Origin: Patescibacteria group bacterium
Lineage (GTDB): Bacteria; Patescibacteriota; Minisyncoccia; UBA6257; HR35
DNA: 48,488 bases
NCBI GenBank assembly: GCA_030549895.1
Contig: JAUQQM010000003.1
Coordinates: forward strand, 1 to 48,488
Reading direction: 5' to 3'
Below the pieces are notes generated by a model. That model was not told where the DNA came from and did not search any database. It worked only from the letters and a program-made list of their open reading frames with translations. Each line of letters starts with the position of its first letter. Within the stretch, counting starts at the first letter, position 1. The translations under genes and the position numbers were made by a program. Of the stretch, positions 632-48,488 are shown one piece after another.

Positions 632-672
632 TATAATGCTATAAAGTAGATAAAAATTAAAAAAACCTTAAA

Positions 673-699: not shown

Positions 700-2228
<1,529 letters not shown>

Positions 2229-2275
2229 ATTTGAGTTTCAGTCTAAAATTTTAAAAATGAAATTTCAAACTCTTA

Positions 2276-22000: not shown

Positions 22001-22005
22001 ACTTG

Positions 22006-22077
22006 TGCGCCGAGCTGGATTCGAACCAGCGACCCCCGACTTATAAGGTCGGTGCTCTACCGCTGAGCTATCGGCGC
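22006..22077 (-). tRNA. tRNA-Ile with anticodon UAU (reads AUA)
   Basis: Reverse complement is GCGCCGA-TA-GCTC-AGCGGTA-GAGC-A-CCGAC-CTTATAA-GTCGG-GGGTC-GCTGG-TTCGAAT-CCAGC-TCGGCGC-A. All stems are perfect. The loop is CT-TAT-AA and the discriminator is A. No CCA is encoded. Confidence 0.8.
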
Positions 22078-28600: not shown

Positions 28601-28798
28601 AAACGGCTCCCCTATACTGTAAGAGAGAAACTCAACTTTAAAATTCTCCTGGCTGTAGTCATATGTTGGAGTAAATTCTTCTAAGATTTCCTTGATTCCT
28701 TCAGTTAAAAACCAATTATAACTTGAAAACTGTATATCTAAAAGGTCATCGGGCAAAAAAGGGCTTATTTCCTTTATTTTTTTTTGGTCAGAAATCAT
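25619..28798 (-). CDS. rpoB: DNA-directed RNA polymerase beta subunit
   Basis: 1059 aa. GRHGNKGVIS, LGGRARGGGQRLGEMEVWAL, FGEKISD. Overlaps the rpoC start by 4 nt. Confidence 0.95.
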   Translation of the reverse strand: MISDQKKIKEISPFLPDDLLDIQFSSYNWFLTEGIKEILEEFTPTYDYSQENFKVEFLSYSIGEPFRSQEEAFEKEVSYTAPLRIKVRVTNLKTGESETQDIYFGEIPLMTERGTFILNGVERVIINQLVRSPGVYFSSIPYGDRNYFGASVIPLRGAWLEFQTELNNIITVKIDRRKKVPVTVLLKAFGVEDNQTLTKIFEDVDISEISYIENTLKKDNTQNTNEALIEIHHKLKPLELSTLDNAIKFFQTTFKEKQRYDLSYPGRYKINKRLNRESTSLFLELEDIIEIVKEIINLNNNPKSKGDDIDSLENKRVRSVGELVQNRFRLGMTRLIKRMKDKINILGEEAISPAKILYPKDLTSAVLEFFLLSPLSQFLDQTNVLAEIEHKRRMTTGGPGGVSKERAGFEIRDVHPSYYGRICPIQTPEGQNVGVISYLAFYARPQKTLGFLETPYFRVKNRKITNEIVWLTAEKEKNEVIANRAIEIEDDYIVQDYVEARAYGQPKTVRAEEVTLIDVSLYQLFSISPLLIPFIEKDDANRALMGANMQRQAVAPIRSEPPFVKTGLEEKIARDTRWLVIAPEDGTISEVDANKIVLKTKSGKTLSFFLKKFLQTNQYVCINQKPIVRKGQNIKKGQVLADVSGTYQGEIALGRNVLVAFLSWGGLNFEDAIIISEKLVKEDYFTTISIEDFYCDVKETKIGPEEVTYDMPGIPEAKLANLDENGIVKIGTFVKAGDILVGKVTPKKEVELSPEERLLKAIFGEKISDIKPTPLVLEHGKDGRVIGINILSRDRNDPLETDVIKRIKVKIAKLRKIQVGDKLCGRHGNKGVISRIVPEEDMPFLPDGTPVEVILNPLGIISRMNIGQLFETHFGMIAKKKNTSFTIPVMSKISEEILKEELKKAGFSEDGKFDLYDGKTGLKYDQKVTVGYMYMYKLIHMAEDKIHARSVGPYSLITQQPLGGRARGGGQRLGEMEVWALEGYGSSATLQEMLTIKSDDVIGRNQAYNSIIKGEKIKISAVPAAFNVLYQELKGLGFNIEVEIGTEVKTEEKVKKVKT

Positions 28799-28877
28799 AA
28801 AATAAGGGCCTTTTTATTTATTTTTGCCCCCTTTTTTTAAAAATAAAACATAAATAGGGAAATTAAATTATACTTAA

Positions 28878-28905
28878 ATTATATTCAAATATTTACTTTT
28901 GTCAA
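28878..28905 (-). promoter_or_regulatory. consensus promoter TTGACA-16 nt-TATAAT for rpoBC (about 75-80 nt leader)
   Basis: Minus strand: TTGACA (28900-28905), AAAGTAAATATTTGAA, TATAAT (28878-28883). Confidence 0.55.
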
Positions 28906-32333: not shown

Positions 32334-32346
32334 AATATTTTATTTG

Positions 32347-32652
32347 TGGAGGTGGCGGGAATTGAACCCGCGTCCAGGAAAAGTAGGTTAAAAATTCTAC
32401 GGGCGTAGTGAGTTTGGATACTTTTACAGGTGAAAAACTCACAAAACCCTGTAAAAGTTTACGGTTGGAAGTTTTAGCAAAACTGAGCGCCGTAAAACCA
32501 CTCAGTTTTGCTTGCAAGGAATTTAAAAAATTCCTTGCCTTGAAAATTTTTTTAAGTTAAGCGTAGACGGCAGTTTCTTAAGCCACTTTGAAGGCGTGGC
32601 GACCTTCCCGCCTTTTTAACCTATACTTTTCCTGTCGAATCCTTTCACCCCC
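32347..32652 (-). ncRNA. ssrA: tmRNA (transfer-messenger RNA)
   Basis: 5' end is GGGGGTGAAAGGATTCGACAGG. 3' end is GGACGCGGGTTCAATTCCCGCCACCTCCA. The acceptor stem has a G3-U70 wobble. P2 helix is CAGGAAAAGTA.AGGTTAAAAA / TTTTTAACCTACTTTTCCTG. PK1 is GGCGGGAAGGTCGCCACGCCTTC. About 306 nt. Confidence 0.9.
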
Positions 32653-32660
32653 TTTTTAGT

Positions 32661-32972
32661 TACTGAGGTGGCCCATAAGCCGGCTTCTGTTTATGAGACT
32701 ATAACTCTGGGTTAAAAATTACTTTTTAACTCAAGCGGCTCGTAGCTTAAAAGCTACACGGCCTTGCACCCAAGAGCTAGGAACCAAAAGCTTTAGGTCA
32801 CCCTAAAGCTTTCATCTAATAACCAAGAAAAGATTTTCTTGGCTATTAGATACGTTTCACTTTACTTCGTCTCTGTGGTCCCTAGAAAAAATTACTTTTT
32901 TCTGGCTTTCGCCAGCTCCAAATGGGTGGCCGGACTTTCCTCCCTTTAAAGGGCAGTCTCTTGGGCCACCTC
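32661..32972 (-). ncRNA. rnpB: RNase P RNA (bacterial type A-like, compact)
   Basis: P1 is GAGGTGGCCC / GGGCCACCTC. P4 strands are GGGAGGAAAGTCCGGCC and ACAGAAGCCGGCTTAT. Also GGGTGCAAGGCCGTGTAGC. About 310 nt. Confidence 0.85.
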
Positions 32973-40810: not shown

Positions 40811-40925
40811 GCCCTGGCGCATCCTACTTTCGCCTGCCTCTGCAGACTATCATCGGAAGGATGAAGCTTGACGACCCTGTTCGGAATGGGAAGGGGTATG
40901 GCCTTCATCCTTAAAGCACCAGGGC
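40811..40925 (-). rRNA. rrf: 5S ribosomal RNA
   Basis: Reverse complement is GCCCTGGTGC...CCATACCCCTTCCCATTCCGAACAGGGTCGTCAAGC...GCGCCAGGGC. The terminal helix closes and is followed by TTTTTAATTT. Confidence 0.9.
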
Positions 40926-40949
40926 TTTTTAATATGAAGTTATTAGAAG

Positions 40950-43925
<2,976 letters not shown>

Positions 43926-43942
43926 CTTCTAATAACTTCAGT

Positions 43943-43971
43943 TATTTAATTTTTATTTTCATTCATCTCAA
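43943..43971 (-). promoter_or_regulatory. candidate proximal 23S promoter TTGAGA-17 nt-TAAATA
   Basis: Minus strand: TTGAGA (43966-43971), 17 nt, TAAATA (43943-43948). The predicted start lies at the edge of the processing stem. Confidence 0.3.
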
Positions 43972-43985
43972 CAGTCTCTAGAATT

Positions 43986-44010
43986 AAAAAAGCCCCGCTC
44001 GATGCGGGGC
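43986..44010 (-). terminator. intrinsic terminator-like hairpin GCCCCGC-AUCGA-GCGGGGC plus U6
   Basis: A 7-bp all-G/C stem (44004-44010 / 43992-43998) followed on the minus strand by TTTTTT (43986-43991). Confidence 0.55.
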
Positions 44011-44051
44011 CAAACAAAAGCAAAAATAAAAAGGCTTTAAGTTTGGCCCCG
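44004..44051 (-). promoter_or_regulatory. alternative 11-bp antiterminator pairing CGGGGCCAAAC / GUUUGGCCCCG
   Basis: Segment 1 (44041-44051) is perfectly complementary to segment 2 (44005-44015). Segment 2 contains the 5' arm of the terminator, so the two structures are mutually exclusive. Confidence 0.45.
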
Positions 44052-44066
44052 ACATCTTCTTTCCAT
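44037..44066 (-). CDS. candidate 9-codon leader peptide MERRCRGQT
   Basis: ATG GAA AGA AGA TGT CGG GGC CAA ACT TAA on the minus strand. The ATG is about 3 nt from the predicted start of the TTGACA/TATAAT promoter. Codons 6-9 are segment 1 of the antiterminator. Confidence 0.25.
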   Translation of the reverse strand: MERRCRGQT

Positions 44067-44075
44067 GATAATAAT

Positions 44076-44103
44076 ATTATAATCAAAAACTTAACTTTGT
44101 CAA
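44076..44103 (-). promoter_or_regulatory. consensus promoter TTGACA-16 nt-TATAAT upstream of the 23S leader
   Basis: Minus strand: TTGACA (44098-44103), AAGTTAAGTTTTTGAT, TATAAT (44076-44081). Confidence 0.5.
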
Positions 44104-44114
44104 ATTCAATAATT

Positions 44115-44777
44115 CTATCCTATAAGAGTACCTCGAACAACTCCTTTTTCAAGAAATTCCTTTAAAAGAGATAAATTATTTCCATTCAAAATTATGCACT
44201 TTATTTTAAATCTTTTTGCTAGCTGAGAAGCAACAGGATCAAAAGGACTAAAAAGTCCTGGCCTCCATTTTTTAGGAATGATCCTTAAGTATTCATCCCA
44301 ACTTAATGTTTTTACACCTATTTTTCTTTTTTTTCTCTTTACATAAACATAATCTACATTTGTAAGATTTATCACAAACTTAGCTTTATATTTTTTCGCT
44401 AAAAATGTAGCTACATAATCAGTACTAAAACCTGGCTTCCAACCACAAGCAATCAAAATTTTTTCTTTAAAATTTATGTTTTTTTGAGGATTATCTATTA
44501 TCTGGGGAAAAGAGTATTTTTTAAAAAGAAGATAGACAAGATAGGCATTTAATTTAGTGACAGTTATCCCTAGTCTATCAAGATCATTTTTAGATTTAAT
44601 TTTTAACTTTTTTGCCCCAAGTTGATATTTTCTTGCTGTTTTCCCTCCACCTACAACAATAATAAATTTTTTACCTTTTTTTAAGTAATTTAAAATAAAA
44701 TTTCTAAACTTTCTAAGAAATTCAACATTTATCTCTTTTTTGACAATTAAACTTCCTCCTAAAGAAATTACATACAT
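44115..44777 (-). CDS. pyrH: uridylate kinase (archaeal-type PyrH, amino acid kinase family)
   Basis: 220 aa. YVISLGGSLI, IIVVGGGKTARKY, GWKPGFSTDYVA..LA, LTNVDYVY. Confidence 0.75.
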   Translation of the reverse strand: MYVISLGGSLIVKKEINVEFLRKFRNFILNYLKKGKKFIIVVGGGKTARKYQLGAKKLKIKSKNDLDRLGITVTKLNAYLVYLLFKKYSFPQIIDNPQKNINFKEKILIACGWKPGFSTDYVATFLAKKYKAKFVINLTNVDYVYVKRKKRKIGVKTLSWDEYLRIIPKKWRPGLFSPFDPVASQLAKRFKIKCIILNGNNLSLLKEFLEKGVVRGTLIG

Positions 44778-48030: not shown

Positions 48031-48488
48031 CTACTTAGTAGCCTCATATAGGCTTTTAATTTCAACAGGCGAAAGGGCGCGGTTGTAAATTCTAACTTCA
48101 TCAATGAAACCGTTGAAATAATTTTCATTAATATGCTTTTGGGCTAAGCTTAATGGAATGCCTATCAAATTAAACGTGGTACCTATACTTTGAGAAAAAG
48201 TACCATCAACATAACCTCGCAGCCTCATTCCATCGTATGTTATTACTATATGTTTCCATACCCCAATAGGAAGACTTGGATTTACTCCCGCTAAATTCCA
48301 TGATCCAAACTGTGTTTCCCCTGTGGACCTAATCAACCAATGGTGCGCTCCTGTACCTTCATTTCCTAATAATAATATCCAAGACCTATTTGGGGGTAAA
48401 ATAGATACTTTAATCCATGCTTCAATGGAGTGAATAGTATTACCCGTTGATAAACCTGAAACTGAAGCTACATTCACATAATCATCCA
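48031..48488 (-). CDS. LamG / concanavalin A-like lectin domain protein, C-terminal part (open to the window edge)
   Basis: IEAWIK, WKHIVITYDG..LRGYVDG, F.GFIDEVRIYNRALSPVEIKSLY is the classic Laminin_G_3 ending. The track start codon is GTG and the frame stays open to 48488. GC content is visibly higher than the neighbours. Confidence 0.75.
   Translation of the reverse strand, partial: DDYVNVASVSGLSTGNTIHSIEAWIKVSILPPNRSWILLLGNEGTGAHHWLIRSTGETQFGSWNLAGVNPSLPIGVWKHIVITYDGMRLRGYVDGTFSQSIGTTFNLIGIPLSLAQKHINENYFNGFIDEVRIYNRALSPVEIKSLYEATK

Follow-up and report, generated by a model that had tools for sequence, protein, structure and literature searches.

The 23S and 5S rRNA genes of the Patescibacteria genome analysed here are preceded, on the minus strand, by a compact leader module composed of a perfect consensus promoter, a 9-codon open reading frame (ORF) next to the predicted 5' end of the transcript, and two RNA structures that exclude each other. 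We hold with about even confidence that this module is a ribosome-mediated (leader-ORF) attenuator of 23S-5S, which would be read through by default and would terminate transcription when a ribosome is on the mini-ORF. The window, that is, the whole stretch of DNA analysed, has 48,488 nt.

How cells match rRNA synthesis to their need for ribosomes is an old question. Model bacteria solve it at the promoter, through ppGpp and NTP pools, and to our knowledge the original idea of a direct feedback by free ribosomes never gained a cis-acting mechanism. If our reading is true, a leader-ORF attenuator before an rRNA operon is such a mechanism, and one that can be tested by a few point mutations. In candidate-phyla bacteria genomes are minimal, rRNA genes are unlinked, the anti-Shine-Dalgarno sequence is missing and most mRNAs are leaderless; we know of almost nothing on their gene regulation, and the module would show regulatory solutions that evolved in them. 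It also carries a caution for annotators, as a promoter-terminator pair before an rRNA gene is not necessarily a small RNA (sRNA) gene or the terminator of a neighbour.

Results and discussion

Lineages and genomic context

The comparison covers three lineages in all, two of them related. Lineage W is the window together with strain L001; lineage K (L089, L098, L102-104 and L113-115) has 23S genes 82-87% identical, and lineage G3 about 67% identical. Extra members of the K and W clusters brought hardly any new variation, and the module is absent from a GC-rich lineage found in the same search. Lineage K has the same module before 23S, but behind a gene for a PCC-domain protein instead of pyrH, and the stop codon of that gene overlaps the -35 hexamer; the gene upstream of the module in G3 encodes a membrane protein. 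The search for pyrH homologues returned 1453 sequences, with a single cluster at 97% and all others at 58% or less. None of 80 GTDB loci, nor L003, has 23S next to pyrH, which indicates that the pyrH-23S synteny is lineage-specific. Homologues of the PCC gene of about 70% identity (L099-L101) have no 23S beside them either, and a protein search for related 23S starts, made with a spurious ORF on the strand opposite to the start of 23S, gave no matches. Judged by this distribution, the module belongs to 23S and not to pyrH.

Promoter and predicted transcription start

The module starts downstream of the pyrH stop codon (TAG, 44115-44117, minus strand) with a -35 hexamer TTGACA (44098-44103, minus strand), also kept in K (L089/L098) and G3, and a -10 hexamer TATAAT (44076-44081, minus strand) after a 16-nt spacer. 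A preliminary description, made from the letters alone, had read a perfect TTGACA-16-TATAAT promoter at 44076-44103; it is there, and it is commoner than chance predicts, with two copies in 48 kb against 0.04 expected and none of 100 shuffles giving two. The other perfect copy sits upstream of rpoB. Because the perfect consensus is found only here and before rpoB, the 23S-5S promoter is judged to be real. Nine nucleotides separate TATAAT from the ATG at 44064-44066. The RNase P RNA gene served to calibrate the start position: its Rfam start (32972) falls on the 7th nucleotide after its own TATAAT, and by this measure transcription of the module probably starts at A44069.

An attenuator has its regulated genes under the leader promoter, and no other acceptable sigma-70 promoter was found by scan between the module promoter and the rRNA processing stem in W, K or G3. 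A weaker second promoter had been suggested at 43943-43971. This sequence is TTGAGA-17-TAAATA, its -10 matches at three of six positions and lacks the invariant last T, and the scan is silent on it. The candidate was discarded on its score and because its spacing varies between lineages, from 17 nt here to 26 nt in K.

Competing antiterminator and terminator

Downstream of the promoter lie the strands of two structures, all on the minus strand. Segment A (GAUGuCGGGGCCAAAC, 44041-44056), the 5' strand of the antiterminator, is inside codons 4-9 of the mini-ORF and covaries with segment B (GUUUGGCCCCGCAUC, 44001-44015), which is at once the 3' strand of the antiterminator and the 5' arm and loop of the terminator. 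Between them is a very U-rich loop of 25 nt (UUUUUAUUUUUGCUUUU, 44016-44040) that holds the stop codon and is free to vary. The intrinsic terminator, GGCCCCGC-AUCGA-GCGGGGCU followed by U6 (43986-44011, -16.6 kcal/mol), lies between the ORF and the regulated genes. An 11-bp pairing had been described, and CGGGGCCAAAC (44041-44051) is indeed a perfect complement of GUUUGGCCCCG (44005-44015), but the real helix is longer: GAUG-u-CGGGGCCAAAC (44041-44056) pairs with GUUUGGCCCCGCAUC (44001-44015) over 15 bp with one bulge, at a predicted -29.5 kcal/mol (z = -7.1). The antiterminator is longer than first stated and therefore consumes the terminator loop as well. The two structures are mutually exclusive, segment B being common to both, and the predicted antiterminator is stabler than the terminator. 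The 91-nt leader as a whole folds with z = -3.5. In the folding model A:B forms first during transcription and is the minimum-energy fold; with a ribosome footprint masked at the stop codon, the predicted minimum-energy fold switches to the terminator. Reading of the pyrH 3' end revealed no upstream G/C-rich partner for segment A (an anti-antiterminator), and the window has no second copy of segment B.

The G/C hairpin was confirmed as G-GCCCCGC/AUCGA/GCGGGGC-U and then U6 at 44011-43986. It has eight pairs, seven of them G-C, and U6 in W, and nine pairs and U6 in K; the terminator of G3 is weaker (7-bp stem, U5, -9.7 kcal/mol) and was missed by the scan. Terminator-like sites occur in the window at chance level (10 against 10.5 expected, 9 against 9.3 and 11 against 10.3), and the leader hairpin is the sole site with seven G-C pairs and U6 and the only strong canonical terminator. 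According to the scans, canonical terminators are not otherwise a feature of gene ends in this genome.

Conservation and covariation were examined in the relatives. MAFFT alignments misplaced the 3' end of segment A, and a covariance model based on the window and on L001 was used instead. The three segments and the AUG/ORF are kept in K. The A:B helix is 100% paired in four distinct sequences (slid controls, 34-56%), and two of 11 pairs are compensatory in K (AU to UA, CG to AU). The terminator arms and U6 are identical between W and K, with a loop of 5 nt against 7 nt, and as this helix is invariant there is no covariation in it between the two. Between L089 and L098 the neighbouring gene is 9.5% divergent and the module 3.3%, with stems, AUG and U6 untouched and three of four module substitutions in the A-B loop (substitution counts made by eye from the alignment); likewise, three of the four intergenic substitutions between the window and L001 fall in that loop. 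G3 has the same layout made from unrelated sequence: its 13-codon ORF (MENLMTIFNKRSG) stops 1 nt after segment A, its RNAalifold consensus is the antiterminator, and every change within pairs is compatible with pairing. The covariance model does not recognise G3, so that its likeness to W and K is one of architecture alone. These patterns suggest that an exclusive antiterminator is under selection, on a small covariation sample from two independent lineages.

Mini-ORF and translation context

The mini-ORF encodes MERRCRGQT (ATG GAA AGA AGA TGT CGG GGC CAA ACT TAA; nine codons and stop, 44037-44066, minus strand). It is present as previously described, near-leaderless, with its AUG 3 nt from the 5' end if transcription starts where predicted. 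The distance from the -10 to the AUG is 9 nt in K and 9-10 nt in G3. The ORF has 9 codons in W, 10 in K and 13 in G3; in each lineage it is open through segment A, which falls in the last codons, and ends 1-6 nt past it. The stop is retained as TGA in L001. Shuffled sequences reproduce this geometry by chance in 1.4-3.1% of cases per lineage. The AUG is conserved in K, yet peptide and frame differ, and an AUG-initiated ORF over segment A is kept in the three lineages despite a 2-nt frame change. The leader ORF thus appears to be conserved as an ORF, and it overlaps the antiterminator strand, the arrangement of a ribosome-mediated attenuator.

The peptides themselves (MERRCRGQT, MRWRAGPI(E/K)(S/F) and MENLMTIFNK(R/G)SG) are not conserved between lineages. 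The ORF had been noted as Arg-rich, which holds for MERRCRGQT (three of nine codons) but not across lineages, where the Arg counts are 3, 2 and 1-0. The three peptides have no common codon bias or run of regulatory codons such as would mark amino-acid sensing, and an Arg-sensing attenuator is ruled out by the lack of conserved Arg codons. In G3, substitutions within the ORF have no clear bias toward synonymous sites.

The 3' end of the 16S rRNA lacks CCUCC, so the anti-Shine-Dalgarno tail is missing, as it is in G3. No more than six of 48 ORFs are preceded by so much as a weak Shine-Dalgarno sequence, and a -10 hexamer stands 3-12 nt before the start codon of 16 of 47 ORFs, mostly at 5-8 nt, compared with 8.5% of all ATGs. 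Translation of a near-5'-terminal AUG is plausible given the missing anti-Shine-Dalgarno and these widespread leaderless-type starts. The spacing of 9-10 nt is longer than the 5-8 nt of typical leaderless genes of the host and would imply a 5' extension of 1-4 nt, which counts against the attenuator. The 16S leader of the window has no 5' AUG and no such module.

Downstream leader and rRNA genes

Past the terminator, GUUGAGAU..UGAAAA (43955-43973, minus strand) is kept between W and K, even though the spacing to the following element is not the same. A possible likeness to the boxA consensus makes it a candidate antitermination signal; it is not a -35. In G3, a motif GGAAAGUNCNUUGAAAAYCG is common to the 16S and 23S leaders. 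The motif AAAAAUUAAAUAAC (43941-43954, minus strand), identical in K, stands directly 5' of the 23S processing stem, and a near copy, AAAAATTAAAAAAACC (652-667, plus strand), precedes the 16S processing stem in the window. The 23S stem, which the preliminary description had placed 48 nt beyond the hairpin, is there as a perfect 30-bp duplex between 43911-43940 and 40935-40964 (both minus strand) and starts 45 nt after the U-tract. Its 5' strand at 43911-43940 implies that the precursor begins upstream of 43940. By Rfam, the regulated genes (40812-43923, minus strand) are 23S rRNA (40950-43923) and 5S rRNA (40812-40923). Rfam 15 gave no match at gathering level in the intergenic region; at permissive thresholds the best hits reached 12-25 bits where the gathering scores are 35-186, and all of them were to sRNAs or leaders that contain a terminator.

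Proposed mechanism

In the attenuator as we propose it, the consensus promoter would yield a precursor starting at about 44069, whose first 30 nt or so contain the 9-codon ORF with its AUG 3 nt from the 5' end and segment A in codons 4-9. If no ribosome is on the ORF as segment B emerges, A:B (15 bp) would form and block the terminator, and RNA polymerase would run through the boxA-like element and the processing stem into 23S-5S. A ribosome loaded on the 5'-proximal AUG would cover segment A from initiation until it reaches the stop codon, since the ORF has roughly the length of one ribosome footprint; segment B would then pair with C, and we infer that transcription would end at U6. The output of 23S-5S would drop with an ample supply of initiation-competent ribosomes and increase when that supply is short, and large-subunit rRNA synthesis would respond inversely to free ribosome capacity, as the preliminary description had suggested. 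Physiologically, we tentatively favour, at somewhat less than an even chance, a feedback wired in cis: idle ribosomes on the 5' AUG would mask the antiterminator and abort 23S-5S, spare capacity would set the output, and ribosome-coupled read-through from upstream mRNA would be halted by the same module.

Some considerations count against the attenuator. The time window is short, about 50 nt of transcription being all that a ribosome has for loading. In W and K the predicted stability of the antiterminator exceeds that of the terminator by so much that termination might seldom occur. The variable peptide, the terminator helix without covariation, the weak terminator of G3, the small number of lineages and the GC-rich lineage that has no module count on the same side. 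As a stoichiometric control the feedback would be one-sided, because 16S has no counterpart of the module.

Alternative explanations

Several of the same observations would also fit a constitutive structural leader, in which A:B is a permanent part of the pre-rRNA (a hairpin of boxB-like or RNase III type, or a structure before boxA that serves folding or pausing), B:C with U6 is a pause or fail-safe, and the AUG and ORF are functionless. A:B is the minimum-energy fold and is predicted to form first, the boxA-like element and processing stem come directly after, the 16S leader of G3 has a long hairpin and then a U-run with no ORF over the hairpin, and the peptide varies between lineages. We nevertheless think this unlikely, as it leaves unexplained why the exact G/C 3' arm and U6 are unchanged between W and K while loops and spacers diverge, why the three-segment overlap recurs in G3 with unrelated sequence, and why an AUG-ORF lies over segment A in three lineages despite the frame change; moreover, where translation initiates at 5'-proximal AUGs, as in this host, an AUG in that place would pull ribosomes onto the pre-rRNA. 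The conserved competing structures could instead form a conditional terminator under non-translational control. Polymerase might pause in the U-rich loop according to nucleotide supply (sensing UTP or the initiating NTP), or A:B might be stabilised or opened by a protein, for instance a Nus factor or a ribosomal protein. The loop has a very high U content and rRNA promoters sense NTP pools, yet a high U content is general in this genome, which has about 30% G+C, the loop is no binding pocket because it is the fastest-evolving part of the module, A:B is a plain perfect duplex without a conserved internal loop for a protein, and the conserved AUG and ORF geometry stay unaccounted for. This explanation appears decidedly unlikely.

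A shade less probable still is an independent small gene, for a free RNA of about 84 nt or a peptide of 9-13 residues, with 23S served by a promoter of its own that escaped recognition. The preliminary description had offered an independent sRNA as a null hypothesis, and the unit does have its own consensus promoter and terminator and is conserved; in other bacteria, RNAs released by terminated attenuators can act in trans, as does rnTrpL of Sinorhizobium (PMC7968998). The idea is weakened by the scan, which found no acceptable sigma-70 promoter between U6 and the processing stem in any of the three lineages, the candidate at 43943-43971 having a 3/6 -10 and a spacing that changes from 17 to 26 nt in K. 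In addition, the stable fold of the full RNA is predicted to destroy its own terminator, which would be unusual for an sRNA gene, Rfam offers no match (12-25 bits against gathering scores of 35-186), and the peptides are unrelated between lineages. The other null hypothesis, that the hairpin is simply the terminator of the nusA-rsmI-pyrH operon with the rRNA promoter in front of it by happenstance, is very improbable and can effectively be rejected, although the hairpin is the first terminator after pyrH and on the same strand. The module travels with 23S, behind the PCC-domain gene in K and the membrane-protein gene in G3, and not with pyrH, which has no 23S beside it in 80 loci of other genomes; the genome is otherwise without canonical terminators at gene ends; and pyrH transcripts contain segment A too and would therefore be antiterminated as well.

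Comparison with known systems

The literature searched, with incomplete coverage, gave no description of a leader ORF or attenuator before an rRNA operon. Leader-peptide attenuation is already known, and what would be new here is its application to an rRNA operon. The proposed attenuator resembles the enterobacterial leader-peptide attenuators (trpL, hisL, pheL, thrL, leuL, ilvL) in its promoter-proximal short ORF, its intrinsic terminator before the regulated genes and an antiterminator with one strand in common with that terminator; in both, the position of the ribosome would pick the hairpin, and a ribosome at the stop codon would favour termination. In contrast to those systems, it has three segments and not four, with no 1:2 pause or anti-antiterminator hairpin, and an untranslated 23S leader would therefore read through, whereas an untranslated trp leader terminates. 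It also differs in having no run of regulatory codons and no conserved peptide, in its predicted initiation at a 5'-proximal AUG without Shine-Dalgarno, and in its product, which is rRNA and not a biosynthetic mRNA.

The likeness to rRNA leader antitermination (boxB-boxA-boxC, Nus factors) consists in the rRNA leader itself, with a hairpin, a candidate boxA-like element and an RNase III-type stem. The proposed outcome, free ribosomes depressing rRNA synthesis, is that of the ribosome-feedback model reportedly put forward by Nomura and colleagues. In E. coli, rRNA feedback acts at the promoter level via ppGpp and NTP, and the accepted model, as far as we know, has neither an ORF nor a working terminator in the leader; in the 23S module the feedback would act in cis via translation. 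The RWR (K) and RCR (W) peptide motifs, absent in G3, bear what we take to be a superficial likeness to macrolide arrest motifs.

Drug-sensing ribosome-mediated attenuators (bmrCD of B. subtilis, PMC4191407; mef/mel, PMC4335068; erm leaders) are alike in that ORF occupancy remodels a terminator/antiterminator pair in response to the state of the translation machinery and not to a metabolite. They need drug-induced stalling at defined codons and turn on resistance genes, whereas simple occupancy would turn off rRNA transcription here. Mycobacterial leaderless polycysteine sORFs, which sense Cys codons and control mRNAs (bioRxiv 10.1101/834739; leaderless landscape, PMC4633059), have in common with the 23S module, as read from its sequence, a very short ORF at the transcript 5' end, the lack of a Shine-Dalgarno and a putative cis effect on downstream genes; unlike them, the 23S module has no codon bias, an explicit terminator/antiterminator pair and an rRNA operon as target. 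The UTP-sensitive attenuators pyrBI and pyrE of E. coli are similar in the U-rich leader and in the coupling of the leading ribosome and polymerase at a terminator. There the sign is opposite, as the ribosome prevents terminator formation, and those leaders have no antiterminator hairpin and control pyrimidine genes.

Genomic setting and anatomy of the leader

The source genome of the window belongs to the Patescibacteria/Parcubacteria and is low in G+C (about 30%). Its rRNA genes are unlinked in the window, with the 16S rRNA gene (700-2230, plus strand) apart from the 23S (40950-43923) and 5S (40812-40923) genes, both on the minus strand. Upstream of the 23S gene on the same strand are nusA, rsmI and pyrH, the last encoding an archaeal-type UMP kinase (44115-44777, minus) whose nearest homologues are divided between Patescibacteria and DPANN archaea.

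Every element of the attenuator-like leader reported in the preliminary description was recovered at its place on the minus strand: a -35 box TTGACA (44098-44103), a 16-nt spacer, a -10 box TATAAT (44076-44081), 9 nt, a mini-ORF encoding MERRCRGQT (ATG at 44066, TAA at 44037), segment A with the core CGGGGCCAAAC (44041-44051), its complement GUUUGGCCCCG (44005-44015), and a G/C hairpin with U6 (44011-43986). The pairing of CGGGGCCAAAC with GUUUGGCCCCG stands, but the antiterminator helix is longer than had been proposed: GAUG-u-CGGGGCCAAAC pairs with GUUUGGCCCCGCAUC over 15 bp with one bulge (-29.5 kcal/mol, z = -7.1). In the leader as a whole (-32.4 kcal/mol, z = -3.5) this antiterminator is the fold of lowest energy, and the terminator on its own reaches -16.6 kcal/mol. 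Chance does not account for these elements. TTGACA-16-TATAAT, the perfect promoter pattern, occurs twice in 48.5 kb (0.04 expected), and, while terminator-like sites over the whole window are at shuffle level in number, the module hairpin is the only one with seven G-C pairs and a clean U6.

The second copy of the promoter pattern precedes rpoB (28798-28905, minus). It is followed by a leader of ~73 nt with a 4-codon ORF (ATG TTT TAT TTT TAA) and a hairpin AAGGG...CCCUU, then AUUUU, immediately 5' of the rpoB AUG; this leader may likewise be linked to translation.

Occurrence in three lineages

The same locus is present in close strains (L001, L002 and L105-L111; divergence about 2.2%), where the 191-nt intergenic region carries four substitutions, three of them within 10 nt of the A-B loop and one of these changing the stop from TAA to TGA. 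Promoter, AUG, both stems and U6 are all unchanged. Elsewhere pyrH homologues are at most 58% identical, and a 23S gene beside pyrH is absent at all 80 genome loci and in contig L003; the search therefore moved to metagenome contigs, where a pattern taken from the window 23S 5' end gave 13 loci.

One of these, L089, represents a lineage (K) whose 23S is 82-87% identical to that of the window lineage (W). Its module is clearly homologous: TTGACA-16-TATAAT, 9 nt, ATG CGT TGG AGA GCG GGG CCA ATA GAA TCT TAA, an antiterminator in which GCGGGGCCAAUA pairs with UAUUGGCCCCGC, and a terminator GCCCCGC-GGAAAAU-GCGGGGC with U6. The upstream gene is not pyrH; it encodes a PCC-domain protein, and its stop codon overlaps the -35 box. 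Through this neighbour further K members were found in several samples (L098, L102-L104, L113-L115). Trained on the window and L001, a covariance model detects the K modules with E about 2e-5. In the covariation check that had been proposed, the A:B helix is 100% paired in the W/K alignment, against 34-56% for slid controls, and two of its 11 pairs have changed on both sides (AU to UA, CG to AU). This score was reached by 21 of 500 shuffles, a thin statistic resting on only two independent lineages. Counted by eye, L089 and L098 show 40 differences over 420 positions of the neighbouring gene; over the 123 positions of the module from -35 to U6 they show 4, of which three lie in the A-B loop and one in the promoter spacer. 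W and K differ by 2 nt in the distance from AUG to A, and A is consequently read in another frame and the peptide is a different one (MERRCRGQT in W, MRWRAGPIES/KS/KF in K); both ORFs extend through A and stop 2-6 nt beyond it. The 23S of L098 (1823-5250) spans 3428 nt and that of the window 2974 nt; the extra ~450 nt are an insertion, possibly an intron.

A third lineage (G3; L085, L087, L090, L091, L093-L095), whose bacterial 23S shares only about 67% identity with the window 23S, repeats the architecture before its 23S in unrelated sequence. The promoter is TTGACA-16-(TG)TAAAAT, the AUG follows after 9-10 nt, and the ORF has 13 codons (MENLMTIFNK(R/G)SG), the last of which form segment A (AGAAGCGG), with the stop 1 nt later. 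An inner hairpin follows, then segment B (CCGCUUCU), which doubles as the 5' arm of the terminator CCGCUUC-UUC-GAAGCGG, trailed by U5. The RNAalifold consensus of four variants is the antiterminator, with every within-pair substitution compatible with pairing, and the two folds are nearly iso-energetic. The terminator is weaker (-9.7 kcal/mol) and was missed by a simple terminator scan, in our reading by greedy stem extension into the U-tract. No variant breaks the ORF. Several of its changes fall at third positions (TTT/TTC, AAA/AAG, AAC/AAT) but others do not, which leaves selection on coding undemonstrated. The same 23S-pattern search also yielded a GC-rich lineage (L086, L088, L097), in which the module is absent.

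Probable translation of the mini-ORF

The 3' end of the window 16S (2190-2245) reads ...GGGGAACCUGGCGGUGAAACAACUCUGAU and lacks the CCUCC anti-Shine-Dalgarno, and G3 lacks it as well (L093 3560-3610, GGAUCACUUAUU). A weak SD-like motif precedes only 6 of 48 long ORFs. A -10 hexamer ends 3-12 nt before the start codon in 16 of 47 ORFs, against 8.5% of all ATGs; ten of the 16 hexamers are perfect TATAAT, and most of the 16 are spaced 5-8 nt, indicating that the organism relies largely on leaderless-type initiation; K genes have the same spacing. The first nucleotide of RNase P RNA is the 7th after its TATAAT, with the -10 ending 6 nt before the 5' end, and on this spacing the module transcript would start at A44069, 3 nt 5' of the AUG. 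At 9-10 nt in each of the three lineages, the module's own spacing from -10 to AUG is among the longest in the range, and the mini-ORF mRNA is accordingly predicted to be near-leaderless, not strictly leaderless. The genes for RNase P RNA (32661-32972) and tmRNA (32344-32652), both on the minus strand and 8 nt apart, appear to share one promoter, TTGACT-16-TG-TATAAT (33006-32979).

Regulatory interpretation

The two folds are mutually exclusive, as had been proposed, since they share strand B, and when a ribosome footprint is placed on the stop codon, the minimum-energy fold of every variant changes from the antiterminator to the terminator. A and B are transcribed ahead of C, the terminator 3' arm, so read-through would be the default and termination would require A to be masked. 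A ribosome on the 27-30-nt ORF would mask A from initiation through release. The most likely reading, to which we would give about an even chance from sequence, is the ribosome-mediated attenuator of the 23S-5S operon suggested in the preliminary description. Ribosome-coupled read-through from the upstream gene would then be terminated, and fresh untranslated rRNA transcripts would pass. The sequence data show the elements with their mutual exclusivity, conservation and covariation, the link to the 23S and the SD-less setting, and from these the start site, translation of the ORF, termination in vivo and the direction of the physiological response are predicted.

Other explanations were weighed. 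That the hairpin is simply the pyrH terminator is very improbable, as K carries module and 23S behind the PCC-domain gene. A leader hairpin formed constitutively, with the AUG incidental, is doubtful, though the likeliest of these alternatives; the ORF geometry (AUG among the first 6 nt, frame open across A, stop no more than 10 nt beyond it) turns up in 1.4-3.1% of the shuffles for each lineage. A switch controlled by a factor or NTPs, which would use the same pair of folds, is unlikely, and an independent small gene ending at the hairpin is perhaps a shade less likely still.

The two strands of the 23S processing stem pair perfectly over 30 bp (43911-43940 with 40935-40964), and the precursor must therefore start upstream of 43940. 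The second promoter suggested between U6 and this stem (43943-43971) does not hold up: TTGAGA-17-TAAATA matches the -10 at three of six positions, without the last T, and went unreported in the promoter scan. In K the TTGAGA-TAAATA spacing is 26 nt (17 nt in W), L098 has TTGATA, and promoter scans of K and G3 leaders found no second promoter. Conserved sequence follows U6 (GUUGAGAU..UGAAAA) and directly precedes the processing stem (AAAAAUUAAAUAAC), and a near copy of AAAAAUUAAAUAAC precedes the 16S processing stem of the window. In G3, GGAAAGUNCNUUGAAAAYCG is common to the 16S and 23S leaders downstream of their hairpins; we take it to resemble a Gram-positive-type boxA. A boxA-like signal placed directly behind the terminator would imply that transcripts of the rRNA operon pass it.

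The ribosome-mediated attenuator would work like classical leader-peptide attenuators and has their structural features. It differs from them in having three segments instead of four, so that no translation means read-through, in lacking regulatory codons and a Shine-Dalgarno sequence, and in its target, an rRNA operon. In logic it stands closest to two groups already described, the leaderless sORF attenuators of mycobacteria (bioRxiv 10.1101/834739; PMC4633059) and attenuators sensing translation state, such as bmrCD (PMC4191407). No Rfam family matches the module, and in the literature searched no leader-ORF attenuator before an rRNA operon was found described. This reading draws on sequence analysis of only three lineages; the module should surprise specialists, and it makes the old idea of ribosome feedback a testable cis-element.

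16S leaders and other features

The 16S gene of the window has its own promoter, an extended -10 TGaTATAAT (623-631, plus), a short leader and a 24-bp processing stem (673-696 with 2276-2299, plus). Its leader motif AAAAATTAAAAAAACC (652-667, plus) resembles AAAAATTAAATAAC before the 23S stem; in this leader (620-700, plus) there is no terminator/antiterminator module and no AUG near the 5' end. The G3 16S leader of L093 (1817-1985, plus) has a promoter TTGACA-17-TAAAAT and a long hairpin AAACCGAAGACAC...GUGUCUUCCUGGUUU followed by UGUUU, with a competing hairpin CAGGAAG-GUGU-CUUCCUG inside, no ORF over it, and downstream the same boxA-like GGAAAGUACUUUGAAAACCG as in the 23S leader. L087 (2505-2650) and L095 carry insertions of 70-96 nt with extra hairpins between attenuator and processing stem. 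Part of the G3 16S leader has its homologue in the L095 insertion, suggesting that the two leaders have exchanged sequence.

Elsewhere in the window, the tRNA-Ile gene (22005-22077, minus) has the anticodon UAU (tat), an unusual means of decoding AUA in bacteria, where a lysidine-modified CAU tRNA is usual. A 148-aa ORF (48031-48477, minus) differs from L001 at 78 of 447 positions (17.5%), with all neighbouring genes at 1-3%; it is a hypervariable or recombined surface-type gene.
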